Below are positions 5,263 through 48,264 of a stretch of 52,744 nt of DNA, piece by piece. Position 1 is the stretch's first letter; each line of letters starts with the position of its first letter. The stretch spans positions 1 through 52,744 of the forward strand of contig CAYMZF010000002.1 in NCBI GenBank assembly GCA_964394905.1, read 5' to 3'. The notes below the pieces were generated by a model. It saw nothing but the letters and a program-made list of their open reading frames with translations, searched no databases and was not told where the DNA came from. The DNA comes from an uncultured Gammaproteobacteria bacterium (GTDB lineage Bacteria; Patescibacteriota; Patescibacteriia; Patescibacteriales; UBA12465). A program made the translations under genes and the position numbers.

Positions 5263-7701
5263 TTAAAAATCTCTGATATGAGCGGAAAATTTTTCTTGTA
5301 AAACTTTTATCAAACCTTTTTGAATCTGATCTACTTCTTCATTATTTAAAGTTTGATCGTCGGATTGATAAACAACATGAAAAGCCAAGCTTTTTTTATT
5401 AGTTTCTAAATTTTGACCGGAATAGACATCAAATAGCTCAACTTTTTTAATTAAGGGATGAAATTTTTTTATTTCTTGACTAATATCATTATACAATATT
5501 TTTTGATCTATAACAAAAGCCAAGTCTCGATTAACGGCCGGAAATTTAGGAATGGCTTGATATTGTTTTATCGGTCCGTTGGTTATGGCTATTAATAATG
5601 TTTTTAAACTAATTTCAGCATAAGCTACTTGTTTTTTAATGCCGTTTTTATTTAGAACCTCATTATTAAGACTGGCTAAATAACCAATTTCTTTTCCATT
5701 TAAAATTATTAAACATTTTTCTTTATTATCGGCCCAAGCAATAATTGATTCGGTTGGATAAAAATCAATTTCTTGACCATTAGAAATTTCTAGACCGGCA
5801 TTAAAAATAATATTTTTTAAAGTGGCAAAAACCTGTTTGGAATTTTCCGACAATATTAAACCAATTTTTTTTTCTTGATAAGGTAATTTTTCCGAAGACT
5901 TATTATCTTTATTGGGACCACCGGCAATATTTAAAAAAACGTTTTCAATTTCAAATAAAGAAATTTTATCGTATTTAGCTTGATTGTTTTTTATATTAGC
6001 CAGTAAATTAGTAATTAATGTCTGTCGAAGCATAGTATGTTGCGATGACAACGGGTTTAATAATTTAATATAATTTTTAGAATCTAAATTAAGTTTTAAT
6101 AATTGTTCTTCGTTAACATAAGAATAATTATAGGTTTCTGTCATTTTATAACTAAAAGCTAAAATTTTCTTTATTTTTTTACTCAATTCCATTTCGGGAT
6201 CTTTTTCCGGCGGTATTATTTTGTCTTGTGGCATAACAGGAATTATATTATTATAACCGTAAATTCGAGTTATTTCTTCAATCAAATCTTCTTTTATTTG
6301 TAAATCTTTTTTTCTCCACGAAGGAATTATTATTTCCCAAGTCTCTCCGGTAGAGGTGGCCGGAATAATATTTTTTATTATTAAGCCCAAACTTTCTAAG
6401 ATTTTTTTTATTTTTTTATCGTCAATTTTTTGTCCGATAAATTTTTCCGCCCAAGCTAAATTTAAAGAAATAGTTTTTTCTTCATTTTTAAAAGTTCCTT
6501 CGTCAATAATATCATTTTGAAAAATGGCTTGAGGACATACTTGTTTTATTAATTCACTAGCTTTTTCTAAAGCTATAAGACATAGATTAGGATCTAATCC
6601 TTTTTCAAAACGAATAGCCGCATCGGTTCTAATATTTAAACGGCTACCGGTTTTTCTAATGGATACGGCGTCAAAATTAGCCGATTCAAGTATAATTGAA
6701 GTAGTAGTGTTATTAATTTCACTGTTTTTACCGCCCATTATTCCGGCTAAAGCGATAGCTTTTAAATCCGAAGCGATTACTAAATCATCCTCAATTAATT
6801 TTTGTTCTTTATCATCTAAAGTTATTAAAGTTTCATTTTTATCAGCTCGTCGAACAGTTATTTTTTTTATATTTTCGGAATCAAAAGCGTGAAGCGGTTG
6901 GCCGATTTCCAACATAACATAATTAGTGATATCAACAATATTGTTAATTGGGTTTAAACCGACAGCTTTTAGTTTATTTTTTAACCAAGATGGAGATTCT
7001 TCTATTTTGATATTATCAATTTTTAAAGCAGTATATTTTTTACATAAATTTTTAGCTTTAATATCCACCGTTATATTTTCAATTTTGTTTTTACTTTTTT
7101 TTATTTTTATTTTTTTGGTTTCATAGTCCTTTAATTTTTTATCAAAAATAACGCTTAATTCTCGGGCAATTCCATAATGGTTCCATAAGTCCGGTCGGTT
7201 AGAAATTGATTTGTTGTCAATTTCTAAAATAGTTTCGTCTAATTTTAAATAATCGCCCAAAGATTGTCCGATTTTAGCCGGTGATTTTAAAACCATAATA
7301 CCGGTGTGATCGGAACCCAAACCTAATTCGTCTTCGGCACAAATCATTCCATTTGATTCCACGCCTCGAAGTTGGGCCGGTTTAATTTCTAATCCATTTG
7401 GTAAAATTGCTCCAATTTTAGCTAGGGCTACTAATTGACCGACAGCAACGTTAGGTGCTCCGCAAACAACTTGAAGATTGTTTTCTTCTCCACTATCAAT
7501 TATAGTAATTTGAAGTTTATCGGCTTGAGGGTGTTTTTTTACTTCTAAAACTTTAGCTACAATTACATTTTTAAATTGATCTTTGCTTTGGCTTATTTTT
7601 TCAACTTCAACCGTATGATCGGTTAATTTATTTTTTATATCTTCAGGATTGATATTTGATAAATTAACGAATTCTTTTAACCAGTTTAATGAAATATTCA
7701 T
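5263..7701 (-). CDS. pheT: phenylalanine--tRNA ligase beta subunit
   Basis: N-terminal tRNA-binding OB domain (VVAKVLEVKKHPQADKLQ), B3/4 and B5 regions, and a C-terminal anticodon-binding-like domain. It lies immediately downstream of pheS. Confidence 0.93.
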   Translation of the reverse strand: MNISLNWLKEFVNLSNINPEDIKNKLTDHTVEVEKISQSKDQFKNVIVAKVLEVKKHPQADKLQITIIDSGEENNLQVVCGAPNVAVGQLVALAKIGAILPNGLEIKPAQLRGVESNGMICAEDELGLGSDHTGIMVLKSPAKIGQSLGDYLKLDETILEIDNKSISNRPDLWNHYGIARELSVIFDKKLKDYETKKIKIKKSKNKIENITVDIKAKNLCKKYTALKIDNIKIEESPSWLKNKLKAVGLNPINNIVDITNYVMLEIGQPLHAFDSENIKKITVRRADKNETLITLDDKEQKLIEDDLVIASDLKAIALAGIMGGKNSEINNTTTSIILESANFDAVSIRKTGSRLNIRTDAAIRFEKGLDPNLCLIALEKASELIKQVCPQAIFQNDIIDEGTFKNEEKTISLNLAWAEKFIGQKIDDKKIKKILESLGLIIKNIIPATSTGETWEIIIPSWRKKDLQIKEDLIEEITRIYGYNNIIPVMPQDKIIPPEKDPEMELSKKIKKILAFSYKMTETYNYSYVNEEQLLKLNLDSKNYIKLLNPLSSQHTMLRQTLITNLLANIKNNQAKYDKISLFEIENVFLNIAGGPNKDNKSSEKLPYQEKKIGLILSENSKQVFATLKNIIFNAGLEISNGQEIDFYPTESIIAWADNKEKCLIILNGKEIGYLASLNNEVLNKNGIKKQVAYAEISLKTLLIAITNGPIKQYQAIPKFPAVNRDLAFVIDQKILYNDISQEIKKFHPLIKKVELFDVYSGQNLETNKKSLAFHVVYQSDDQTLNNEEVDQIQKGLIKVLQEKFSAHIRDF

Positions 7702-14081: not shown

Positions 14082-16025
14082 ATGAATATTAAAACCAAAA
14101 AAATTATTTTTATAAGCATAGGCATTGTATTATTATGGCTTGTTTTTTTATTGGTCGGTAATTTTGTTTATAATAAAAAATGGGCTAATACTATTTATCC
14201 TAATATTTATTTAAATAATGTTAATTTAGGCGGTTTGAATAAAGCTGAAGCTAAAGATGTTATTAATCAAAAAATAAACGATTTTGAAAAAACAGGAATA
14301 AGGATAAACTTGAAAAATAGGGAAATTATTTGGAATAATACCGTCTCATCTTTAGATCCGGATTTAGCCATTCAACCGGTAGTTTTTGATGTTGATAAAA
14401 CAATAGATCGGGCTTATCAATTTGGTCGTCAAGGAAATTTATCGGATATATTTTTTAAAATTAATTCTTTGTTTTTTAAAACTCAAGTAGAAATAAATTT
14501 TTCAATTAATGATGAAAATATATTAAAAATTTTAAATGATAATTTTTCTGATTTAGAAATATTTACTAATAATGCCAAACTAAATTTTAAAGAAGAAATA
14601 AAAAACACCGATAATACTACCACTTTAACTTTCTTTATTGAACCGGAAAATTCCGGTAAAGAAATTGATGATAATGTTTTTTTAACAAAATTTAAAAACA
14701 ATTTATCTTTACTGAAAAATGATCAAATTAATTTGAATTTAGTTGATAAACAACCGGAAATAACTTTAGCTATGTCTCAGGGTTTAGAAATAGAAGCGGA
14801 GAATTTATTAAACTTAGCTCCGTTTAATTTAATTTATCAAGATAAAAACAAAACTTTTGTTGTTAGCCAAATAGAATTGGCTTCGTGGTTAAATTTGGAA
14901 CCACAGTATTTACAGAACAAAATTATTTCAACTCAGGTCGGTTTAGATGATGAAAAAATTATTAAATTTTTTGATGAAAAAATAAAACCCGAAGTTAATC
15001 AAGAACCGGTTTTACCAAAATTTGAATTTAGTAATAATAAAGTTAGCTCTTTTGAATCCGGTACGGACGGTTTAAAAATAAATTATGAACAAAGTATAAA
15101 TAATATAAAAAACGCTTTTTATCAACGTAATATGGAAAATGTTGTTTTAACGGTAGAAGTTGATCCGGTTCAAAAAATTAACAGCGTTAACGATTTAGGA
15201 ATTGAAGAAATAATCGGTACGGGTCATTCTAATTTTTCCGGTTCATCGGCTAATCGTCGTCATAATATAAAAACCGGGGCTAGCAAACTTAGCGGTTTAA
15301 TTATTAAACCCGGTGAAGAATTTTCTCTTCTTAAAGCATTGGGAGAAACAGATGCTAAAGCCGGTTATTTACCGGAGTTAGTTATTAAAGGGAATAAAAC
15401 AACTTTGGAATACGGTGGAGGTTTATGTCAAATTGCTACTACGATGTTTAGAACCGCTTTAGCTTCCGGTTTACCAATTACCGAACGGCGTAATCATTCT
15501 TATCGGGTTTCATATTATGAACCGGCTGGAACGGATGCCACTATTTATATTCCCAGTCCTGATTTAAAATTTAAAAATGATACGGGTAATAATATTTTAA
15601 TTCAAACTCGTTTTGAAGGCACTAATGATATTTATTTTGATTTTTGGGGGAAATCAGATGGTCGAACAGCTACAACCACTTATCCGGTTATTTATAATAT
15701 TGTTAAACCGGCTCCGACCAAGATTGTTGAAACTACTGAATTGCCGGTGGGAGAGAAAAAATGTACCGAAAGCGCTCATGCCGGAGCTGAAGCCTATTTT
15801 GATTATACGGTCATATATAATGCTGGAACAGATAATGAAAATAAAGTTGAAACTAGATTTAGTTCTAAATATGTTCCATGGCAAGCCGTATGTCTCTTAG
15901 GAGTTGAAAAAACAAGTGAAGCGACCTCCACTTCTATGACTGCTTCTACTTCTACTCTCAATACTACTTCAATTAATACAGTTTCAACCAGCACTAGTCT
16001 AATTGCCACTACTACAACTGAATAG
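14082..16025 (+). CDS. VanW-family protein, TM-anchored, with Ser/Thr-rich C-terminal tail
   Basis: N-terminal TM helix. VanW core: RRHNIKTGASKLSGLIIKPGEEFSLLKALGE, YGGGLCQIATTMFRTALASGLPITERRNHSYRVSYYEP. The C-terminal ~45 aa are almost only S/T. Confidence 0.85.
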   Translation: MNIKTKKIIFISIGIVLLWLVFLLVGNFVYNKKWANTIYPNIYLNNVNLGGLNKAEAKDVINQKINDFEKTGIRINLKNREIIWNNTVSSLDPDLAIQPVVFDVDKTIDRAYQFGRQGNLSDIFFKINSLFFKTQVEINFSINDENILKILNDNFSDLEIFTNNAKLNFKEEIKNTDNTTTLTFFIEPENSGKEIDDNVFLTKFKNNLSLLKNDQINLNLVDKQPEITLAMSQGLEIEAENLLNLAPFNLIYQDKNKTFVVSQIELASWLNLEPQYLQNKIISTQVGLDDEKIIKFFDEKIKPEVNQEPVLPKFEFSNNKVSSFESGTDGLKINYEQSINNIKNAFYQRNMENVVLTVEVDPVQKINSVNDLGIEEIIGTGHSNFSGSSANRRHNIKTGASKLSGLIIKPGEEFSLLKALGETDAKAGYLPELVIKGNKTTLEYGGGLCQIATTMFRTALASGLPITERRNHSYRVSYYEPAGTDATIYIPSPDLKFKNDTGNNILIQTRFEGTNDIYFDFWGKSDGRTATTTYPVIYNIVKPAPTKIVETTELPVGEKKCTESAHAGAEAYFDYTVIYNAGTDNENKVETRFSSKYVPWQAVCLLGVEKTSEATSTSMTASTSTLNTTSINTVSTSTSLIATTTTE

Positions 16026-16245: not shown

Positions 16246-16273
16246 AAAAAACCCTTATTTTAAAGGGTTTTTT
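16246..16273. terminator. terminator of tsaD (palindromic, usable in both directions)
   Basis: AAAAAACCCTT-atttta-AAGGGTTTTTT, overlapping the tsaD stop codon. Confidence 0.7.
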
Positions 16274-17315
16274 ACTTAAATTCGAGGTTGGAATTAACTT
16301 TTATATCTTTATAGGTTTTAAACTTTTTTTTATTTTTTAAAAAATGATAGGTTCCGGCCATAGCAATCATAGCGGCATTATCACCGGTATATTTAAGTGA
16401 CGGAAAAATAAAATTAATATTTTTAAAATTTTTTTTAATTCGTTTTTGAAATTCATTTTTTAATTCCTGATTAGCTGAAACTCCGCCCACCAACATAATG
16501 GTTTTAACTTGATATTTTTTAGCCGCCTTTAAAGTTTTACTTATTAAGACATCAATCGCGGCTTGTTGGAAAGAATAACAATATTGAGGAATTTTATTTT
16601 TCCAATTTTTATCTTTTTTTAATTGATAAAGTAAAGCAGTTTTTAAACCGGAAAAAGAAAAATTAAAGTTAGGTGAAGTTATCATCGGACGAGGTAAATG
16701 AATTTCTTCCGGATTTTTAACATTGTTTATATATTCTTTAGCTTGTTTTGCTATTATTGGTCCGCCGGGATAGCCAAGACCCATCATTCGAGCGGCCTTG
16801 TCAAAAGCTTCACCGGCGGCATCATCTAAAGTTTGTCCAATAATTTGATAATGTAGATGATCCTTCATTAAAGCTAAAATATTATGACCACCTGAGACGG
16901 TTAAAATTAAAACCGGCCAAATTATTTTCTTTTTATTTTCTATAAAAGCAGAATAGATATGGCCCTCAATATGATTAATGGGAATTATCGGTTTGTTCCA
17001 AACATAGGCTAAACTCTTGGCTGTTTCCGTAGCTGAAATTAAAGAAGTTATAAGTCCCGGGCCGGCGGTAACGGCAATAGCTGAAATTTGGCTTGGTTTT
17101 ATTTTAGCTTGTTTAATACTTTGATCAATTACCGGCAAAATATGAACAACGTGTTCACGGGCGGCAATTTCCGGCACGACTCCACCATATTGTTTGTGGA
17201 TATTAATTTGAGAGGAAACAATATTGGATAAAATATTAAAATTGTTATAATCGAATTTTATAATAGCGGCGGCGCTTTCGTCGCAACTGCTTTCAATTCC
17301 TAAAATTATTGGCAT
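16272..17315 (-). CDS. tsaD: tRNA N6-adenosine threonylcarbamoyltransferase TsaD (Kae1/Gcp family)
   Basis: ILGIESSCDESAAAI, GGVVPEIAAREH, HIEGH, SGGH, GDNAAMIA motifs. Confidence 0.93.
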   Translation of the reverse strand: MPIILGIESSCDESAAAIIKFDYNNFNILSNIVSSQINIHKQYGGVVPEIAAREHVVHILPVIDQSIKQAKIKPSQISAIAVTAGPGLITSLISATETAKSLAYVWNKPIIPINHIEGHIYSAFIENKKKIIWPVLILTVSGGHNILALMKDHLHYQIIGQTLDDAAGEAFDKAARMMGLGYPGGPIIAKQAKEYINNVKNPEEIHLPRPMITSPNFNFSFSGLKTALLYQLKKDKNWKNKIPQYCYSFQQAAIDVLISKTLKAAKKYQVKTIMLVGGVSANQELKNEFQKRIKKNFKNINFIFPSLKYTGDNAAMIAMAGTYHFLKNKKKFKTYKDIKVNSNLEFK

Positions 17316-17369
17316 ATTTTTTTGTTTATAACTATAGTTTAACTGAAGTTTTAATTAAAAACAAGATTA

Positions 17370-17398
17370 TTGACAAGATTAAGAATTAAATATAAAAT
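17370..17398 (+). promoter_or_regulatory. candidate sigma70-type promoter upstream of tRNA-Glu
   Basis: TTGACA-N17-TAAAAT, with the -10 ending 55 nt upstream of the tRNA 5' end. Confidence 0.5.
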
Positions 17399-17400
17399 AA

Positions 17401-17430
17401 AAATGCTTTTAGTTAATGCTAAAAGCATTT
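17401..17430. other. perfect 12-bp hairpin between the promoter and tRNA-Glu
   Basis: AAATGCTTTTAG-ttaatg-CTAAAAGCATTT, followed by TAGTTTTTT. It looks like a terminator, but it sits between a promoter and the tRNA. Confidence 0.5.
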
Positions 17431-17452
17431 TAGTTTTTTATGTGACTTTATT

Positions 17453-17524
17453 GGCCCCTTCGTCTATCGGTTAGGACACCAGGTTTTCAACCTGATAAGA
17501 TGGGTTCGACTCCCGTAGGGGTCA
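17453..17524 (+). tRNA. tRNA-Glu (anticodon UUC); integration target of the island
   Basis: Acceptor GGCCCCT/AGGGGTC, anticodon arm CCAGG-ttTTCaa-CCTGA, T-arm TGGGT-TCGACTC-CCGTA (end pairs T-A, T-C mismatch). No encoded CCA. The 3' 44 nt belong to the 80-nt direct repeat. Confidence 0.88.
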
Positions 17525-17560
17525 CATTATAAAATAGGTTTTAAAACCTATTTTTTTGTT
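17481..17560. repeat. left copy of exact 80-nt direct repeat (attL-like)
   Basis: Identical to 22589-22668 by direct comparison. Covers tRNA-Glu from the anticodon stem to the 3' end, plus 36 nt downstream including the tRNA terminator hairpin. Confidence 0.95.
17531..17557 (+). terminator. tRNA-Glu terminator (duplicated in the right repeat at about 22639-22665)
   Basis: AATAGGT-tttaaa-ACCTATT followed by T7. Confidence 0.6.
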
Positions 17561-17695: not shown

Positions 17696-17821
17696 TTTGC
17701 CTAAACTTCTCTTGGGAGCATGGCAAAAAGTCCACGAAAGCAAAAATGGTCTTCTGACCGGTTTTTAGCTTTCGTGGCGCATATCTAAAAGATGTGTTAA
17801 TCGTGTCGGGGGACCTTTTTT
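17696..17821 (+). ncRNA. candidate structured RNA / structured 5' leader at the left edge of the island
   Basis: A locally GC-enriched ~125 nt in otherwise very AT-rich DNA.
- Stem TTTGCC (17696-17701) with GGCAAA (17722-17727).
- A long nested hairpin: CCACGAAAGC (17732-17741) with GCTTTCGTGG (17768-17777), extended by A5/T5 and GGTC-ttct-GACC.
- Hairpin CATATCT-aaa-AGATGTG (17780-17796).
- A short GTC-gggg-GAC stem followed by T6 (17816-17821). Confidence 0.4.
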
Positions 17822-18037: not shown

Positions 18038-18232
18038 ATGGGACAAATAATAAGAGAAACAAAAAGAGAACAAAAACTCGAGAAAAAAACTCTATATTAT
18101 GCTTGCGGTTTGCCAAAGGATAATAAACTTTATTTAAAATTATTAAAAGAGTGTAAAGAACTAGAAGTAAGAGCAGAATATGAGTCAGATTATCAAGATT
18201 GTGCTCCTAATTATATGGGTGGTTGTGATTAA
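18038..18232 (+). CDS. hypothetical 64-aa protein (four Cys, Lys/Glu rich)
   Basis: ORF only, with no recognisable motif. Located in the island. Confidence 0.35.
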   Translation: MGQIIRETKREQKLEKKTLYYACGLPKDNKLYLKLLKECKELEVRAEYESDYQDCAPNYMGGCD

Positions 18233-18314: not shown

Positions 18315-18657
18315 TTTTATGTTCAGGACAGAAATAATATTTTATGAGAGATTTATTATATTTAACTTTTAAGTTGAGGGGGGAAGTTAATAAAAGATTT
18401 TATTTAATACTTTTTAAAAATATGTTATTATTAAAGTAATACTATTTGGTTAGTTCATGTAATAACCAGTTATACTCAATTTAAAAATACTTTTCTAATA
18501 GAGAATAAGGAACGATAGGCTTTTAAATAGAAATAAATTTGTTTTTTATTTATTTAAAGGTTAGCATAAAGTATTTTCTCTGTTCTGCTACAAAAAAGAT
18601 TTATTTATAAGAAGAAAATAAATATAGTACAATTATAAAATATTAATCATTAAACCT

Positions 18658-19188
18658 ATGTTTTGTGTAAATTGCGGAAGTAAAATAGAAGATGGTTCAA
18701 AATTTTGCCACAATTGCGGAATTAACATTAATATTGATTTATCTACTCCTAAAAATGTAAAGAAAACTGAACAAGTTATTAAAACCAATGTAAAAACAGA
18801 TAATACAAGAGAGTCAGCGGAAGAATATCAAGCAAAAACAAATATTAAGAGCAAAGAAGAAGCAAAAAAATATCTAAACCAATTGAGGGTACTATTTTGG
18901 ATTGTATTTTTGAGTATTGTTGTAATACGTGTTTTAGGTGAATTAGAAAGCGAGCTAGTTGCCATTTTGTCTATACCTTACATAGGGCTATTGATTTATT
19001 TTATTGTTTTTTCAGTCAAAGTTCTAAAAGCTGAAAAATTATCAAGTGTTAATGCGTTATGGTGTATATTTTTTGCTCCGATTAGCTGGTTGTATATTTA
19101 TCCGTTAATGGCTGATCCACTCAAGATAATTCTGGAAGAAAAACAGCCACCAATTCGTTTAAACGAGACAGAAAAAAACAAAAGATAG
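18658..19188 (+). CDS. zinc-ribbon membrane protein (N-terminal CxxC-N11-CxxC, Lys/Glu linker, about 3 TM segments)
   Basis: MFCVNCGSKIEDGSKFCHNCG, then hydrophobic segments VLFWIVFLSIVVIRVL, LVAILSIPYIGLLIYFIVFSV and ALWCIFFAPISWLYIYPL. Confidence 0.8.
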   Translation: MFCVNCGSKIEDGSKFCHNCGININIDLSTPKNVKKTEQVIKTNVKTDNTRESAEEYQAKTNIKSKEEAKKYLNQLRVLFWIVFLSIVVIRVLGELESELVAILSIPYIGLLIYFIVFSVKVLKAEKLSSVNALWCIFFAPISWLYIYPLMADPLKIILEEKQPPIRLNETEKNKR

Positions 19189-19295
19189 TTGAAGTTAATA
19201 AAAAATTTTAGAGAAATTTCTGGATATTTACCGGTGTTGTAGTTGGTATTTTTGCTGTTAGTTTAATTGTAATATTTTTATTAAATTAAAAAAAT

Positions 19296-20198
19296 ATGTT
19301 TTGTAAAAATTGTGGGAAAGAATTAAATGAAAATCAAAGATTTTGTATCAGTTGTGGTGTTAAATTTTCAGGTATAAATAAAGAAGAAAAAGAAGCACCA
19401 AAAGTACAATTTAAACCTGTTTCACAAAATAAAAAATTGTGGAGTGCTAGGAAAATTATTACAATTCTTGTAATACTCGCAATAATAGGAATTGGCATTT
19501 ATAATAGCCTAGATGAAGATGTAATTATTAAAAATAATGAGGGATTATCAAATTTTGATTCGGGAAATAGTCAGGTTGCAATAAATCAATTTCAACAAGC
19601 AAGCCAAGATGCAGTATCTAATGAAAATAAAATAAACTCTCTAAAAAATCTTGCTTTTGTATACACTACAGAAGGACAGAATGAACAAGCACTTAGTACT
19701 TTTAAAGAGGCATTAAATTTAACAAAAGTTAATTCTTTTGATTATTATTTAATTTCTGGTGAAATTGCTTTATTAGAATATAAACCAAATTCAGCAATTT
19801 TAAGTTATAATAAGGCATATGAGCTTGATTCAAATAATTTTCAAATAAATAATTCTCTTGCTTTATTTTATCTAGACCTTGAAGAAATTGCACCTCAGTA
19901 TACAGATTATTCTAAAGCATTGACCTATGCAAAAAAAGCATATGAATATGATTCTGAAAAATCTGAAATTTCTAAACAAAATTTAGCAATAGCATATTAT
20001 TTTAATGATAATTTTGATCAAACAATTTCTTTATTATCTACAACAAACCTTACCCAACACCCATATGCCGCTTTTTGGTTAGGACTTTCTTATTTAGAAA
20101 AAGAAGATGAAATAAATGCTCGAATTAATTTTCAAAAAGCTATAGAGGGTGGTGCAGAAATGCCACAAGAAATAATTAATTATTTAAATTCTAACTAA
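19296..20198 (+). CDS. zinc-ribbon / single-TM / TPR-repeat protein
   Basis: MFCKNCGKELNENQRFCISCG, then a TM helix at about aa 54-69 (IITILVILAIIGIGIY). After that come repeated TPR-like helices (ALSTFKEALNL, AILSYNKAYELDSNN, ALTYAKKAYEYDSE, ARINFQKAIEGG). Confidence 0.8.
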   Translation: MFCKNCGKELNENQRFCISCGVKFSGINKEEKEAPKVQFKPVSQNKKLWSARKIITILVILAIIGIGIYNSLDEDVIIKNNEGLSNFDSGNSQVAINQFQQASQDAVSNENKINSLKNLAFVYTTEGQNEQALSTFKEALNLTKVNSFDYYLISGEIALLEYKPNSAILSYNKAYELDSNNFQINNSLALFYLDLEEIAPQYTDYSKALTYAKKAYEYDSEKSEISKQNLAIAYYFNDNFDQTISLLSTTNLTQHPYAAFWLGLSYLEKEDEINARINFQKAIEGGAEMPQEIINYLNSN

Positions 20199-20204
20199 AA
20201 TAAT

Positions 20205-20579
20205 ATGTTTTGCGAAAAATGTGGAAACAAATTAAAAGAAAATCATAAATTTTGTACTGAATGCGGACATTTAAATTTAGATAAACAAGAATTTAAAAAA
20301 ACTTCCTCAAATATTTTGGAACAAAAATGGTGGTTTCGTTTAGCTAAAGTTTTATATATATTTTTATACATACCTTTGCCATTTGTTATAATTGAGGTTT
20401 GGTCAGATAACACTCCATCTCATTATTATTATGATGATTCATATAGTGAGGCATTTTGGTACTCATTACTTACTTTAGTTGTTTGGGTTGTTATCTTAAG
20501 ATTAATAAAAATTACTTTTCTTTACATAGCTTTTGGAAAAAAACCACAATGGAAAAAAGAATTTAAAAAAATTTTATAA
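20205..20579 (+). CDS. zinc-ribbon membrane protein (two TM segments)
   Basis: MFCEKCGNKLKENHKFCTECG, then WWFRLAKVLYIFLYIPLPFVIIEVW and AFWYSLLTLVVWVVILRLIKITFLYIAFG. There is a 6-nt gap to the upstream gene. Confidence 0.8.
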   Translation: MFCEKCGNKLKENHKFCTECGHLNLDKQEFKKTSSNILEQKWWFRLAKVLYIFLYIPLPFVIIEVWSDNTPSHYYYDDSYSEAFWYSLLTLVVWVVILRLIKITFLYIAFGKKPQWKKEFKKIL

Positions 20580-20581
20580 AT

Positions 20582-21040
20582 ATGATTATTTTCGGCTGGG
20601 GATACCAGACAATAAAAAACATTGGCCCAACATTTAAAAATCGTTGTAGTCACTGCAATAATGAAGATTATTGGATACTTACAAAATATATTACTTGGTT
20701 TACTTTGTTTTTTATTCCAGTCATTCCTTATTCGATTAAATATTTTTTAAGTTGCCCAATTTGCCAGTATGGCATAATTCTTGATAGTAACCAATTGGAG
20801 CAAATTAAACCAATTGCAGAAGCAAATCAATTGTTAATTGATGGAAAAATAACAGAAATAGAATATAAAGCTAAAGTTGAACAACTAGATAGCGAGGTAC
20901 CATCGGTTGAGGGTGAAGTTATTAAAGAGAAGTTTTTAAATAATACAGGAGAAACTAATAAATTTTGTTCTGAGTGTGGTACAAAAATAACCGAAGGCAC
21001 AAAATTTTGTGGTAATTGCGGCGCAAAAATTTTTAACTAA
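20582..21040 (+). CDS. membrane-embedded split zinc ribbon + SHOCT-like helix + C-terminal zinc ribbon protein
   Basis: C22xxC25 and C58xxC61 flank a hydrophobic hairpin (YITWFTLFFIPVIPY). LLIDGKITEIEYKAKVEQL resembles a SHOCT motif. The C-terminus is FCSECGTKITEGTKFCGNCG. There is a 2-nt gap to the upstream gene. Confidence 0.8.
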   Translation: MIIFGWGYQTIKNIGPTFKNRCSHCNNEDYWILTKYITWFTLFFIPVIPYSIKYFLSCPICQYGIILDSNQLEQIKPIAEANQLLIDGKITEIEYKAKVEQLDSEVPSVEGEVIKEKFLNNTGETNKFCSECGTKITEGTKFCGNCGAKIFN

Positions 21041-21045
21041 AAAGT

Positions 21046-21912
21046 ATGTTTTGTATAAAATGTGGAAACGAGATAAAAGAAAGCTCAAAATACTGTACAA
21101 AGTGTGGTAGTGAATTTTTAAATGACAAAAAAATCAAATCTAAATCAAAATTTTTTGCAAAAAGAAAATTGCTTTATATTTTCGGGGGTTTATTTATTGT
21201 TGCAATAAGTTTATATTTTTTAAATTCATTTTTTAGTACATCAAATAGTAATAATTATGATGTAGCATCTTCCGTTGTGAATATTTATTGTGAAGGTAAG
21301 GATGATGAAGAGATTATTAGTGGATCAGGAACAATATTTTCTGAAGACGGCTTGGTATTAACCAATGCTCATATAATTCCAGAAAGTGCAAAAGATGATA
21401 TTTATATTGATGACACACTATGTTTTGTTGTTTTGCCAGACCCAGTCACTGGTGCACCCGACGAAATTTATTATGCCTATCCAATATTAGATGAAAATCT
21501 AAGTGATGAGTATGATTTAGCTTTTTTACAAATTCATGATGTTTTTTATGATGAAGAAGAAGGATTGTATTATGGCGAATTTCCTAAAAAATTTCCTGCT
21601 TATGTAGATAAAAAACAATGTAGTAGTGATAGTGTAAAACTTGGTGAACCAGTAAAAATATACGGATACCCCGCAATTAGTGGCGGATATGCTCTTACAA
21701 TCACGGACGGTGTTGTTAGTAGTTTATTAGTTGATGAGGGTTTAATAATAACCTCTGCAAAAATTAGTTATGGTAATTCTGGGGGGTTAGCAGTTGATCA
21801 AAATGGATGTATGATTGGAATACCTTCAATGGTAACTGGAGATGAAAACGAAAGTTTGGGCGTAATCATTTCAAACGATTTAATAAATGAATTTATTGAT
21901 AAAATCAAATAG
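21046..21912 (+). CDS. zinc-ribbon / single-TM / trypsin-like (S1, Trypsin_2-type) serine protease
   Basis: MFCIKCGNEIKESSKYCTKCG, a TM helix at about aa 41-58, and an intact catalytic triad context: LTNAH109I, EYD157LAFLQI, YGNS245GGLAV. Confidence 0.85.
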   Translation: MFCIKCGNEIKESSKYCTKCGSEFLNDKKIKSKSKFFAKRKLLYIFGGLFIVAISLYFLNSFFSTSNSNNYDVASSVVNIYCEGKDDEEIISGSGTIFSEDGLVLTNAHIIPESAKDDIYIDDTLCFVVLPDPVTGAPDEIYYAYPILDENLSDEYDLAFLQIHDVFYDEEEGLYYGEFPKKFPAYVDKKQCSSDSVKLGEPVKIYGYPAISGGYALTITDGVVSSLLVDEGLIITSAKISYGNSGGLAVDQNGCMIGIPSMVTGDENESLGVIISNDLINEFIDKIK

Positions 21913-21954
21913 ATTTTTTGGTTGGGGCAATTTACCTATAATAGCGTGTATGCG

Positions 21955-21986
21955 ATTTGGGTTTTTATGAAAAAAATCACCCAAAT
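21955..21986 (+). terminator. hairpin downstream of the protease gene (possible terminator)
   Basis: ATTTGGGT-N16-ACCCAAAT with inner T5/A5 pairing. It is followed by a T-rich stretch rather than a clean T-run. Confidence 0.35.
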
Positions 21987-22021
21987 TATTTGTTTCCTTA
22001 ATTATTAACTATTAAAAATAT

Positions 22022-22237
22022 ATGGAAAAACAAAAAAATTCTAGTACTATTAAAAAAACAATTTTCTTTGTTATATGTGCATTTTTAGTTATTGGTACTT
22101 TAGCTGGTAAAAATCTTAAATATATTACTGATTGGAGTACATCGGAATTAGTAGGTTTTAATATTTGGTCACTAATCGCCATTTTTGGCGGTGCTTATTT
22201 GATATATTTAGGTGTGAAAATAATTAATCGTTTGTAA
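22022..22237 (+). CDS. small two-TM membrane protein
   Basis: 71 aa with two hydrophobic helices (TIFFVICAFLVIGTLAG and IWSLIAIFGGAYLIYLGV). It is the last ORF of the island. Confidence 0.6.
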   Translation: MEKQKNSSTIKKTIFFVICAFLVIGTLAGKNLKYITDWSTSELVGFNIWSLIAIFGGAYLIYLGVKIINRL

Positions 22238-22588: not shown

Positions 22589-22668
22589 AGGTTTTCAACC
22601 TGATAAGATGGGTTCGACTCCCGTAGGGGTCACATTATAAAATAGGTTTTAAAACCTATTTTTTTGTT
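22589..22668. repeat. right copy of exact 80-nt direct repeat (attR-like; orphan 3' part of tRNA-Glu)
   Basis: Identical to 17481-17560. No tRNA 5' half precedes it. Confidence 0.95.
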
Positions 22669-22714
22669 TATAAAAATGATATAATTATGGCAGATTATAA
22701 TTAATAAATGAGTT

Positions 22715-23509
22715 ATGAAAAAAACAATGTTAATAAAAATAATTACCGCCATTTCTTATGTATCTATGGTTGTAATAAATATGTTAGCCAATATCTTACC
22801 CTTTAATGACAGAACTACCGGAGAGATATCAAATCTGTATCCCAATCTTTTTGCTCCGACCGCTTTAACTTTTTCTATTTGGGGACTTATTTATTTAGTA
22901 TTGGGTATTTATGTTTTATATCAATTTGGTCTTTTTCAAAAAAATAAGGGTCGAGATAAAAATAAATTATTTTTAAATATTGATCTTTACTTTATAATAA
23001 CTTGTTTGGCTAATATGTTATGGATGTTTTGTTGGCATTATGATTTTATCGGACTTTCGGTTATTTGTATAATTATTTTATTATTAGCTTTAATTAAAAT
23101 TGCTCAAATTTTAAAAAAAGAAAAATTTTCTTTTAAAGAAGAATTATTCATGGCCATGCCTTTTTATGGTTATTTCGGTTGGATTACTGTAGCAACTATC
23201 GCCAATATTTCCGTTTTTCTGGTAAGTATAAACTGGAATGGCTTCGGTTTAGCGGAAAATTATTGGACGGTTATAATGTTAATAATTGGAGCTATTATTG
23301 GAAGTATAGTAATGATTAGAGAAAAAACTTTATCATATGGAATAGTTATGATTTGGGCTTATTTAGGTATTTGGCTTAAACATATTTCTCATGCTGAATT
23401 TAATAGTAGATATCCCGAGATAATAATTACCGCAATTGTTTGTCTAGCTCCATTTTTAATAATTGAAGGATACTTGTTGTGTAAAAAATATGATAAACGT
23501 TTAAGATAG
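22715..23509 (+). CDS. multi-pass membrane protein, TspO/MBR-related (tentative)
   Basis: 264 aa with about 7 hydrophobic segments, rich in Trp and aromatic residues. The motif NDRTTGEISNLYPNLFAPTALTFSIWGLIYL resembles the long TspO-like family from memory. Confidence 0.55.
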   Translation: MKKTMLIKIITAISYVSMVVINMLANILPFNDRTTGEISNLYPNLFAPTALTFSIWGLIYLVLGIYVLYQFGLFQKNKGRDKNKLFLNIDLYFIITCLANMLWMFCWHYDFIGLSVICIIILLLALIKIAQILKKEKFSFKEELFMAMPFYGYFGWITVATIANISVFLVSINWNGFGLAENYWTVIMLIIGAIIGSIVMIREKTLSYGIVMIWAYLGIWLKHISHAEFNSRYPEIIITAIVCLAPFLIIEGYLLCKKYDKRLR

Positions 23510-23570
23510 ATAATTAAATTATAAAAAAATAGACAATTAAAAATTGTCTATTTTTGTTTGTCAAATATAA

Positions 23571-24632
23571 TTATTTATTTATTAAGAAATTACAAATATC
23601 TCCGTCGCGAACAACATAGTCTTTACCTTCGGTTTTAATTAAACCCAATTCTTTAGCTTTAATATCACCGCCGACTTCAACAAATTTTTCCCAGTTAATA
23701 ACTTCGGCGCGAACAAATCCTTTAGTAAAATCAGTATGAATTTCTCCGGCAGCTTGAGGAGCTTTAGTTCCGGTTTTAATAGTCCAAGCCCGGGTTTCGT
23801 CTTTTCCGGTGGTAAAAAAAGTTTCCAAACCTAATAATTTGTAAGAAGCTGAGATTAGTTTATCCAAACCGCTTCGGTTAATTCCTAATTCTTTCATGTA
23901 TTCGGCTTGTTCTTCTTCAGGAAGATTGGAAATTTCTTCTTCCATTTTAACGTTTAATCTGATTATCTCGCCGTCCCAAGAAAAATCAGTTTCTTTATTT
24001 AAATCATCCGAATTAAGAGCATAAATTATTGGTTTTAAAGTTAATAAGCTTAAGCTTTTAATAAATTCTTTTTCTTCTTCCTTTATTTCTAAATTTCTAG
24101 CCGCTTGACCGTCGTCTAAAACTTTTTTTATTCTTTCTAAAATTTCTTTTTCTTTGATAGCATTTTTATCGTTACCGTGGGCGTCTTTTATAGTTTTAGC
24201 TAATCTTTTTTCAACGGTTTTTATATCGGCAAAAATTAATTCCATAGTGATAGTTTCTTGATCGTCGATCGGATTGATTTCTCCGTTAACATGAATAACA
24301 TTTGGATCTTTGAAGTCTCGAACCACTTCGCAAATAGCATCGCATTCTCTAATGTGAGACAAAAATTGGTTGCCTAATCCTTCGCCGTCATGAGCTCCTT
24401 TAACTAATCCGGCGATATCAGTAAATTCAATAAAGGTCGGAATAATTTTAGCCGGTTTTGATATTTCAGCAATTTTTTCTAAGCGACTGTCCGGAACCTT
24501 TACCACTCCGACATTAGGATCAATGGTACAAAAAGGGTAATTGGAAGCTTCTACTTTCTTTTTAGTTAATACATTAAATAAAGTTGATTTGCCGACATTG
24601 GGTAGTCCGACAATTCCAATTGATAGTGACAT
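23571..24632 (-). CDS. ychF: ribosome-binding ATPase YchF (Obg-like)
   Basis: [16 protein letters not shown]-loop, DIAGLVKGA, a coiled-coil insert, and a C-terminal TGS-like region (YVVRDGDI). Confidence 0.93.
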
Positions 24633-24841
24633 ATTTTAATTTTAGTACATTCAAATTATTAATAAATCCTTAGTTTGATTTATTGTATAATATTTATTAA
24701 AAAATAACAATAATAAGAAAAAAACGATTAAACTTTTTAAACTTAAAAAAATATGATATAATAATTTCACCTTTTAATAATATTAATTATTGGTTCACTT
24801 TTAATAATTTTTTAAAAATATTTTTAGTGACTAACAATTTT

Positions 24842-25177
24842 ATGAATAAACCTTTAGATATTAATAAAGATAATTTTGAGACGGAAGTTTTAAAATCGGA
24901 TTTGCCGGTTTTAGTGGATTTTTGGGCTCCATGGTGTATGCCTTGTAAAATGATGGCTCCGGTTTTAGAAGAATTAGCTACTTTAATGGATGGGAAAATA
25001 AAAGTAATGAAGGTTAATACCGAAGATTCGGCTAATCAGGAATTAGCTTTAAGATATGAAATTCAAAGTGTTCCTAGTATGATGTTGTTTAAAGACGGAC
25101 AGTTAATTTGGGAATTTATCGGTATGCATTCCCGAGACTCTTTAGCTCAAGAAATCGAAGAGCATTTAAAAAAATAA
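24842..25177 (+). CDS. trxA: thioredoxin (active site WCMPC)
   Basis: VLVDFWAPWCMPCKMMAP and SVPSMMLFKDG. The ORF track begins at the GTG at 24827. The ATG at 24842 gives the usual spacing to the active site. Confidence 0.88.
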   Translation: MNKPLDINKDNFETEVLKSDLPVLVDFWAPWCMPCKMMAPVLEELATLMDGKIKVMKVNTEDSANQELALRYEIQSVPSMMLFKDGQLIWEFIGMHSRDSLAQEIEEHLKK

Positions 25178-25186
25178 TACAATTTT

Positions 25187-26107
25187 ATGATTTATGATTT
25201 AATAATTATTGGAGCCGGTCCGGCCGGTTTAACAGCTTCAATTTACGCTTCCAGATACAAAATTAATCATGCGGTAATCGGAGAAATTCCGGGCGGTTTA
25301 ATTTCCGAGGCACATAATGTTTGTAATTTTCCGGGAGAAATAGAAATTAGCGGTTTTGATCTAATGACTAAAATTAAAAACCATGCTCAAAGCTTGGGAG
25401 CGGAAATTATGACTATGGAAAAAATAGTAAAAATTGAACACAACAATAATAATTTTAATCTAATCACCGAATCAAAAAAAACTTTAGAAACTAAAAATAT
25501 TTTATTAGCCACCGGAACTAAACGTCGTCAATTAAATTTACCGGAAGAAAAAAAATATATTGGCAAAGGTTTAGCTTATTGCGCAACTTGCGATGCTATG
25601 TTCTATAAAAATAAAATTGTTGGAGTGGTCGGAGGGGGTAATAGCGCTTTAACCTCAGCTTTGTATTTATCGGAAGTGGCCGAAAAAGTCTATTTAATAG
25701 TAAAAGGAGCTGAATTTAATGGTGAAATGGTTTGGGTAGAACATGTTCTAAACAATAAAAAGATTGAAGTCCTTTTTAATAATGGAGTGGAAAAATTAAA
25801 TGGAGAAATTAAATTAGAATCAATTGATTTAAGTGTTGATTATCAGGATAATAATAATTTAAAACTTGACGGTTTGTTTGTGGAAATCGGTACCGAACCG
25901 GATAAATTATTAATTGAACAATTAGGCTTAATAACCGATAAAAATTATATAGTAGTAGATAAGGAACAAAAAACAAATCGATTGGGTGTTTGGGCGGCCG
26001 GAGATATTACCACTAATTCGGCCGGTTTTAGACAAGTTATTACCGCTTGTAGCGAGGGAGCAATTGCGGCTTTTAGTATTTTTTCCGAGCTACAAAAAAA
26101 TAAATAA
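25187..26107 (+). CDS. trxB: thioredoxin-disulfide reductase
   Basis: DLIIIGAGPAGLTASIYASR (FAD), redox centre CATCDA, VVGGGNSAL (NADPH), and GVWAAGDI. Confidence 0.92.
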   Translation: MIYDLIIIGAGPAGLTASIYASRYKINHAVIGEIPGGLISEAHNVCNFPGEIEISGFDLMTKIKNHAQSLGAEIMTMEKIVKIEHNNNNFNLITESKKTLETKNILLATGTKRRQLNLPEEKKYIGKGLAYCATCDAMFYKNKIVGVVGGGNSALTSALYLSEVAEKVYLIVKGAEFNGEMVWVEHVLNNKKIEVLFNNGVEKLNGEIKLESIDLSVDYQDNNNLKLDGLFVEIGTEPDKLLIEQLGLITDKNYIVVDKEQKTNRLGVWAAGDITTNSAGFRQVITACSEGAIAAFSIFSELQKNK

Positions 26108-48063: not shown

Positions 48064-48264
48064 ATGTCAGTACCAAAAAGAAGAAAAACACGGTCAGCCG
48101 TTGGCCAAAATCGTTCCCATTTAGCTTTAAAACCTAAAACTTTAAATAGCTGTCCCAAATGCGGTCAAGCTATTTTACCCCATACTGCTTGCGGGTTTTG
48201 CGGAACCTATAAAGGTAAAACCGTTTTAACAATTAAAGATAAAAAAGCTAAAAGTAAAAAATAA
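48064..48264 (+). CDS. rpmF: 50S ribosomal protein L32 (zinc-ribbon form)
   Basis: MSVPKRRKTRS start, with CPKCG...CGFCG. Confidence 0.9.
   Translation: MSVPKRRKTRSAVGQNRSHLALKPKTLNSCPKCGQAILPHTACGFCGTYKGKTVLTIKDKKAKSKK

Follow-up and report, generated by a model that had tools for sequence, protein, structure and literature searches.

A horizontally mobile five-gene operon of zinc-ribbon proteins conserved in Patescibacteria

Five neighbouring genes on contig CAYMZF010000002.1, within the 52.7-kb stretch of DNA analysed here in full (positions 1 to 52,744; hereafter the window), encode proteins that share a short zinc ribbon and otherwise carry different domains, which raises the question of whether their products form one functional system and, if so, of what kind. 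A first-pass annotation, made from the sequence alone, had described this locus as an array of six plus-strand genes on an integrated island, and had suggested either one multi-subunit membrane complex or a diversifying surface or defence cassette. That interpretation is partly supported by the analysis presented here. Five of the genes (p1 to p5, 18658-21912 on the plus strand) constitute a horizontally mobile operon that is conserved in Patescibacteria; that its products form one complex, or act in defence or surface diversification, is an inference. The reading that we favour, tentatively and at a probability of roughly 45%, is that this operon encodes a surface protease complex that is mobile and modular, anchored in the membrane and docked via its cytoplasmic ribbons. 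The five ribbon genes, and a sixth open reading frame (ORF; p6) that follows them, are:

p1, 18658-19188, plus strand: 176 amino acids (aa); N-terminal zinc ribbon, Lys-rich linker and a body of two to three transmembrane (TM) segments
p2, 19296-20198, plus strand: 300 aa; zinc ribbon, one TM helix and tetratricopeptide (TPR) repeats; core component
p3, 20205-20579, plus strand: 124 aa; zinc ribbon and a two-TM hairpin; frequent accessory component
p4, 20582-21040, plus strand: 152 aa; PF17032 (Zn_ribbon_15) domain, two helices, disordered linker and C-terminal zinc ribbon
p5, 21046-21912, plus strand: 288 aa; zinc ribbon, one TM helix and an HtrA/DegS-type serine protease domain; core component
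p6, 22022-22237, plus strand: 71 aa; two-TM ORF; island cargo outside the conserved cassette

All six plus-strand genes lie where they had first been placed, and the ORF listing gives the same short gaps in the middle of the array, namely 6 nucleotides (nt) between p2 and p3, 2 nt between p3 and p4 and 5 nt between p4 and p5, with 107 nt between p1 and p2 and 109 nt between p5 and p6. The proposed unit of six genes does not hold, however. No phmmer match to p6 was found in related loci, except in a unitig of the same strain, and DNA similarity to the closest relatives is confined to positions 18627-21919 and ends before p6; therefore, the conserved unit is p1 to p5. Downstream of p5, a 9-bp hairpin with a T-rich stretch behind it (about 21953-21990) was considered as a terminator and rejected, as its fold is no better than that of shuffled sequences (z -0.2).

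The first-pass annotation had noted that one functional system would be doubtful if homologues of these genes were never neighbours elsewhere. They are neighbours in dozens of genomes and metagenome contigs. Searches yielded 612 ribbon-TM-protease homologues, the hosts of which, where the sources name them, are Patescibacteria, Parcubacteria or Minisyncoccia, and contigs with p5 homologues at 87%, 73% and 58% identity carry the same neighbours in unrelated chromosomal contexts. In a scan of one genome per GTDB species, the orthologous protease lay within a plus-strand run of three to six ribbon genes at 21 of 21 independent loci, usually in the order p1-p2-p3-p4-p5, and reverse retrieval from metagenomes, starting from p2, found the protease in 30 of the 35 loci with enough room. 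Conservation of the cassette extends from 94% to about 40% identity, with the p2-p5 pairing and the gene order retained down to 38-57%. Among the 52 cassettes complete on both sides, drawn from loci retrieved through p5 or p2, p2 is present in 50, p5 in 47, p3 in 36, p4 in 28 and a p1 orthologue in 19; the p1 slot is variable, and another ribbon protein, outside the p1-p5 assignment, occurs in 33 of them, often at the p1 position. The number of ribbon genes per complete cassette has a median of five and ranges from 1 to 7, in many orders. Distant PDZ-bearing HtrA paralogues from the same phylum form a separate group with about 30% identity to p5 and have no neighbours homologous to p1-p4; several of them adjoin only an unrelated CX2C protein of about 100 aa encoded on the opposite strand.

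An occurrence of the cassette outside Bacteria was considered and rejected. The record in question (L032, titled Candidatus Nanoarchaeia archaeon) holds a rearranged cassette, protease-p1-p4, and its contig encodes a bacterial-type TyrS and a PEP (phosphoenolpyruvate) synthase, so that the archaeal label is probably a binning error. The titles of other metagenome-assembled genome records (Gammaproteobacteria, Planctomycetota, Saccharibacteria) are likewise suspected to be unreliable.

In the window, the operon lies on an insertion at a tRNA gene, the parts of which are:

17453-17525, plus strand: intact tRNA-Glu(UUC), the integration target (attL side), called by ARAGORN and matched by the Rfam tRNA model at 53 bits
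17481-17560, plus strand: left 80-nt direct repeat, comprising the tRNA-Glu 3' half and the downstream hairpin AAAATAGGTTTTAAAACCTATTTT, 100% identity
17561-22588, no strand assigned: inserted island of 5,028 bp, bracketed by the perfect 80-nt direct repeat
22589-22668, plus strand: right 80-nt direct repeat (attR), comprising a partial tRNA-Glu 3' half and the hairpin

The empty site is preserved in a relative from another sample (L170), in which window positions 17366-17560 are joined directly to 22589-25770. A three-way alignment with the repeats gives the order intact tRNA-Glu, hairpin and a gene for a 264-aa flank protein, with the 5,028 bp absent, and identity to the window is 92% in the right flank and 90% in the left. 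This contig was reached via a 93% homologue of the 264-aa protein, an exact-sequence look-up of which had given no match. In addition, a Logan unitig of 5,088 bp (L001) corresponds to the island plus 30-nt overlaps. The composition of the island also sets it apart, with a CpG observed/expected ratio of 0.76 versus 1.39 +/- 0.08 (minimum 1.21) and a GC content of 26.4% versus 29.4% in 74 other 5-kb windows. The island is a real insertion and compositionally foreign, in agreement with the CG-poor integrated island of the earlier description.

The likeness to tRNA-targeted islands and integrative mobilizable elements thus extends to insertion at a tRNA 3' end, repeats made of partial tRNA, foreign composition and an empty site. 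It differs from them in that the 5-kb island lacks an integrase or excisionase, and in that related cassettes are flanked by large serine recombinases and not by the usual tyrosine integrases. No integrase ORF was found between the repeats, and tblastn with nine cassette-linked recombinases matched nothing in the window except the antisense-tRNA stretch.

Related loci point to mobility as well. Cassettes with proteases 87-94% identical to p5 occur in at least four contexts besides the tRNA-Glu island, and one of these has a Y1 transposase gene next downstream. Clustering of neighbouring genes revealed a large serine recombinase (Resolvase, Recombinase and Zn_ribbon_recom domains) within 3 kb in 14 of 96 loci, and 8 of these 14 recombinase ORFs run, at their 3' ends, into a tRNA gene that lies on the other strand (Glu three times, Ser twice, and Asn, Trp and Gln). 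These eight recombinase genes are:

L008, 294-1880
L017, 5443-7029
L110, 6451-8040
L098, 22-1668
L120, 2887-4542
L103, 8233-9693
L114, 1013-2845
L117, 10209-11744

Such overlaps would fit integrative elements of one family in Patescibacteria that target tRNA genes and have the att site within the recombinase gene. Direct repeats derived from a tRNA, of the type seen in the window, were not found around the cassettes of other loci. A general enrichment of tRNA genes near cassettes was also considered and rejected, as a tRNA gene lies within 1.5 kb in 12 of 99 loci, close to the number expected from a density of 0.068 per kb, and tRNA-Glu alone looks over-represented among the adjacent tRNAs. 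The CpG bias of cassettes relative to their flanks goes in either direction, depending on the locus.

Two further loci are recorded here. One contig of 5,976 nt that carries the cassette (L099) has inverted tRNA-Glu copies at its ends (7-79 and 5898-5970); an artefact of assembly is one possible reason, an element bounded by such copies another. In another (L025, 8131-10903), the GC content of the cassette is 35% versus 45% in the flanks, another sign of foreign origin.

In 28 of 87 loci, the first ribbon gene is preceded at a distance of 3-15 nt by a small gene of the XRE/HTH_3 type, which is missing from the window. Two types were seen, one of about 73 aa and one of 65-81 aa, and examples are:

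L017, 7444-7665
L099, 442-663
L012, 18-311
L104, 595-792

Given this mobility, one may ask whether the cassette is exclusion or defence cargo that reshapes the cell surface or shields it from phages, competing elements or other cells; degradation of incoming receptor-binding or pilus proteins would be one way. Such a role would explain why integrative elements carry it. The insertion and foreign composition of the island, the varied contexts of near-identical cassettes, the flanking serine recombinases and the Y1 transposase all agree with this proposal, as do the XRE gene at the head of the cassette, a position shared with many accessory modules, the diversity of the extra ribbon modules and the presence of ribbon-TM proteins among phage moron-type membrane proteins in PHROGs. 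Nevertheless, PADLOC models (PADLOC-DB 2.0) hit nothing in the cassette beyond the generic protease domain and the ribbons, neither 50,697 phage records nor 72,556 plasmids gave a match, and the cassette contains no nuclease, NTPase or toxin-like effector. Its proteins are well conserved (54-68% mean column identity) and not hypervariable, and many cassettes sit amid housekeeping genes with no mobility gene in view. We consider an exclusion or defence role quite unlikely.

The shared ribbon is a 22-residue CX2C-X10-CX2C module with exactly this spacing in all five proteins, where the first-pass annotation had allowed X10 or X11, and the spacing is kept in 76 of 77 ribbons compared. That the module is shared was borne out, as all five copies exceed the Pfam gathering threshold of 25 bits for Zn_Ribbon_1 (PF13240), with scores of 33.3, 27.6, 28.2, 33.5 and 29.7 bits for p1 to p5, and the ribbon that had been placed at a C-terminus is found in p4. 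In a six-frame scan of the whole window, CX2C-X(6-20)-CX2C occurred six times; five of these are the p1-p5 ribbons, and the sixth, at 48151 and outside the cassette, belongs to an ORF that we take, from its sequence, to encode ribosomal protein L32. At the DNA level, four of the ribbon genes start with ATGTTTTGY, which has five further plus-strand occurrences in the window, by chance.

Across loci, 95 ribbon ORFs were counted in 65 kb of cassettes versus 4 in 240 kb of flanks, which corresponds to 1.46 versus 0.017 per kb, or about an 88-fold difference, and contradicts an even spread of ribbons as a generic tag. Because the neighbourhood is conserved and the ribbons are confined to cassettes, neither of the two grounds on which the first-pass annotation would have given up a single system applies. 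Identity between ribbons is 0.62 for orthologues across genomes, 0.51 for different ribbons within a genome and 0.49 for the cross-genome, cross-class background. The ribbons cluster by orthologue and not by genome; therefore, they are old paralogues, each maintained separately, and this clustering rules out concerted evolution or gene conversion within a genome, which had been considered. In other cassettes, ribbons are fused to DUF4234 plus a protease, to proteases with Cys-rich C-terminal repeats, to a soluble 230-aa domain and to multi-TM bodies with a C-terminal ribbon, so the idea of exchangeable outputs on a shared ribbon holds at the level of the family.

No description of the p1-p5 operon or of PF17032 was found in a literature search, and the PADLOC and PHROGs libraries gave generic ribbon or protease-domain matches only, which agrees with the earlier statement that the locus fits no named system. 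The plan of ribbon, TM helix and extracellular domain as such is already known in Gram-positive bacteria (PMC3355149, PMC4628341). In the nearest case that has been studied, two co-operonic membrane proteins of the Lactococcus lactis llmg_0524-0525-0526 operon carry the same CX2CX10CX2C motif, with zinc binding shown experimentally (Roussel et al., 2015; PMC4628341), and the phenotype of this operon concerns cell-wall integrity (PMC4628341). The likeness of the cassette to Llmg_0524/0526 rests on the ribbon motif, N-terminal and cytoplasmic, on the TM helices that follow it and on the presence of several co-operonic paralogues in the membrane. By this shared motif, zinc binding by the p1-p5 ribbons is predicted. 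The L. lactis operon differs in that it has two ribbon proteins only and a Firmicute host, and no TPR or protease partner and no link to a mobile element have been described for it. Gram-positive YARHG proteins (PF13240/PF12773; PMC3355149) and Staphylococcus aureus TcaA follow the same logic of ribbon, TM helix and variable outside domain, but these are single scattered genes, whereas here three to seven genes stand in an ordered cassette with a fixed TPR-protease core. Matches of the ribbon-TM regions of p1-p3 and p5 to the N-terminal part of the TcaA model are weak (13-19 bits versus a family cut-off of 550).

These precedents bring in a rival account, in which p1-p5 share their regulation but act separately on the envelope. 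The ribbon would then be a generic zinc module at the N-terminus that folds fast and serves to fix N-in topology or to stabilise small membrane proteins, and the cassette would be a family of paralogous fusions that expanded by tandem duplication and domain swapping. PF13240 ribbon-TM-extracellular proteins with many outputs are common in Gram-positive bacteria (PMC3355149), the L. lactis zinc site was judged to be structural (PMC4628341), N-terminal matches to TcaA-type and phage membrane-protein PHROG models indicate a widespread tag, and the make-up of the cassette varies in both number and order of ribbon genes. A generic tag, however, would be expected on other membrane proteins as well, and it is far rarer in the flanks and absent from the rest of the window. 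The persistence of the p2-p5 pairing and of gene order in distant relatives is also hard to reconcile with independent proteins, as is the finding that ribbon signatures are orthologue-specific and not interchangeable, and p4 has a ribbon but no evident TM helix or outside domain for it to anchor. On balance, this account seems somewhat unlikely.

The surface protease complex rests further on the individual proteins, above all the core pair. The TPR repeats first noticed in p2 were recovered by Pfam models TPR_12 (43.0 bits, cut-off 30.1), TPR_2 (42.0, cut-off 27) and TPR_19 (34.9, cut-off 25), and its TM segment (54-72) has five K/R residues before it and four D/E residues after it. For p5, the trypsin-like protease with an intact triad was confirmed, as Trypsin_2 matches at 61.9 bits and H109, D157 and S245 (in GNSGG), as well as four cysteines, are invariant across 14 homologues. 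Its AlphaFold2 model (predicted local distance difference test, pLDDT, 77.5) comprises the ribbon, one long helix (36-64) and the protease domain, and the best solved neighbours of this domain in Foldseek are HtrA1 and DegS-deltaPDZ (E about 1e-13, TM-score 0.74-0.79 on target). No PDZ domain was hit by Pfam in p5, which stops at residue 288 directly after the protease domain, and the best NCBIfam equivalog, TIGR02037, scores 50.9 bits, far below its cut-off of 416. Longer p5 orthologues have Cys-rich C-terminal repeats. The positive-inside charge bias, the invariant cysteines of the protease and these Cys-rich repeats point to an outward orientation, so the TPR domain of p2 and the protease domain of p5 are predicted to lie outside the cell, and hydropathy together with charge bias would place the ribbons on the cytoplasmic side.

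Like DegS and other S1C proteases of the HtrA family, p5 combines an N-terminal membrane anchor with an outside protease of chymotrypsin fold and an H-D-S triad; it differs from them in lacking a PDZ domain, in its added cytoplasmic zinc ribbon and in having a TPR protein as partner instead of RseA, RseP and a sigma factor. A combination of membrane anchor, TPR repeats, CX2CX10CX2C metal site and partner protease is also found in Escherichia coli LapB (YciM) with FtsH, where a single cytoplasmic polypeptide contains both TPR repeats and metal site and works with an AAA+ protease, FtsH. In the cassette, by contrast, an outward position is predicted for the TPR domain, the ribbon stands at the N-terminus and the protease is of the HtrA type.

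The resemblance to DegS invites a model of transmembrane signalling by regulated proteolysis, as in DegS-RseA. On a surface cue, p5 would cleave the TPR protein, or another ribbon protein, in its outside domain, and the freed or exposed ribbon segments would act on a cytoplasmic target, for example the XRE regulator or nucleic acid. In favour of this model, the protease domain has its best structural matches in DegS-deltaPDZ and HtrA1, the topology of the single-pass N-in partners is like that of anti-sigma factors, the XRE/HTH_3 gene heads 28 of 87 cassettes, and ribbon-TM proteins have been proposed to be membrane-tethered regulators in the paper on YARHG (PMC3355149). Yet the XRE gene is missing from about two thirds of loci as well as from the window, and among the gene families that recur within 3 kb of 96 cassettes there is no sigma factor, anti-sigma factor or site-2 protease and no other output gene. 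Moreover, the cytoplasmic part would consist only of the 22-residue ribbon and a poorly conserved linker, and p5 has no PDZ sensor domain. We regard signalling of this kind as very unlikely.

Of the smaller proteins, hydropathy places TM segments at 78-96 and 100-118 in p1 and at 49-67 and 88-106 in p3. The second zinc ribbon that had been read in p4 is present, as the protein matches PF17032 (Zn_ribbon_15) at 52.5 bits (E 8.8e-14; gathering threshold 28.9), and its architecture is common to 281 homologues. The claim that this ribbon is split by a membrane segment was not upheld. No segment of p4 reaches the TM hydropathy threshold, so there is no clear TM helix, and the CX2C...CX2C pair of the domain flanks a hydrophobic beta-hairpin; the AlphaFold2 model (pLDDT 72) has long beta-hairpins with strands spanning residues 5-67, followed by two helices (69-104), a disordered linker and the ribbon. 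The SHOCT-like helix also failed to find support, as no SHOCT match at E<=1 was obtained with Pfam and only the prediction of two helices at residues 69-104 remains. No PDB structure matched the p4 model below E 0.3 in Foldseek. A profile search showed the N-terminal domain to be widespread, with 855 cluster representatives at E<=1e-10, many of which are about 108 aa long and have no C-terminal ribbon.

In the surface protease complex envisaged here, p5 (HtrA/DegS-type, without a PDZ domain) and p2 (TPR) would form a core pair of type-II membrane proteins with their functional domains outside, which up to three or four smaller ribbon proteins, here p1, p3 and p4, would join. The ribbons would serve as cytoplasmic docking elements that gather the subunits into one membrane complex, and a candidate for the hub is p4, which has two predicted zinc sites but no clear TM helix. 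Substrate recognition or regulation, the task of the PDZ domain in canonical HtrA proteases, could fall to the TPR subunit, and the complex might cleave or process cell-surface proteins. The operon reached this genome as cargo of the integrase-less island inserted at the 3' end of tRNA-Glu.

Several points weigh against this reading. Contact among the subunits is presumed, charge bias and the patterns of cysteines are the only basis of the predicted topology, confidence in the p4 model is moderate and no structural relative of it was found, and retrieval of the loci through p5 or p2 biases the sampling accordingly. p1, p3 and p4 are absent from many cassettes, and five p2 loci have no protease, so any complex must be modular. 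In addition, because Gram-positive bacteria use the combination of ribbon, TM helix and extracellular domain generically (PMC3355149) and the L. lactis zinc site was interpreted as fold-stabilising (PMC4628341), the ribbons could be a structural or topogenic tag.

A bolder extension of the same complex is that the orthologue-specific ribbons and the p4 hub act as a heteromeric assembly code, by which interchangeable outside modules (protease, TPR, Cys-rich repeats and others) would be plugged into one machine. The resulting surface protease would travel between episymbiotic Patescibacteria on tRNA-targeting serine-recombinase elements and alter their dealings with hosts, phages or rival elements. 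We consider this extension unlikely.

The cassette is built from known parts in a new combination and is relevant both to the envelope biology of Patescibacteria and to the role of N-terminal ribbons. With their tiny genomes, Patescibacteria rely on other cells; their surface machinery is central to their biology and mostly uncharacterised, and a compact five-gene envelope module that has clearly been transferred horizontally likely confers a selectable surface trait. Zinc ribbons stand at the N-terminus of thousands of bacterial membrane proteins, and an operon in which every subunit carries one, while the neighbouring genes do not, offers a clean test case for what they do. The pair of occupied and empty sites also provides a natural comparison of near-identical strains with and without the cassette.

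The remaining observations concern the rest of the island and its surroundings. The left 1.1 kb of the island holds small unconserved ORFs and one structured RNA candidate:

17698-17800, plus strand: LOOT-like RNA (RF03000), 40.1 bits versus a gathering threshold of 46.4, E 3.5e-5, below threshold

This stretch next to attL is GC-richer and has a strong fold (z -5.96) and a full-model Rfam match; it was not found in eight related loci and is island cargo, not part of the cassette. A Cys-containing ORF of 64 aa (18038-18232, plus strand) matches no family and lacks homologues in related loci, and 425 nt of non-coding DNA separate it from p1.

Outside the island, a 647-aa protein (14082-16025, plus strand) has a VanW-like domain by NCBIfam (E 7e-20, below cut-off). 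The 264-aa multi-TM flank gene (22715-23509, plus strand), which stands directly 3' of tRNA-Glu in the empty site, has more than 4,600 homologues, several of them named 'tryptophan-rich sensory protein' (TspO-like); a few homologues have a precomputed PF03073 assignment, although the window protein itself has no Pfam hit. On the other side of the tRNA, the empty-site contig encodes a protein with a pilin-like N-terminus (L170, 1-1065), and the window has TsaD there on the opposite strand (16272-17315). Since the genes upstream of tRNA-Glu differ, the two strains are set apart by a second rearrangement, immediately to the left of about 17366.

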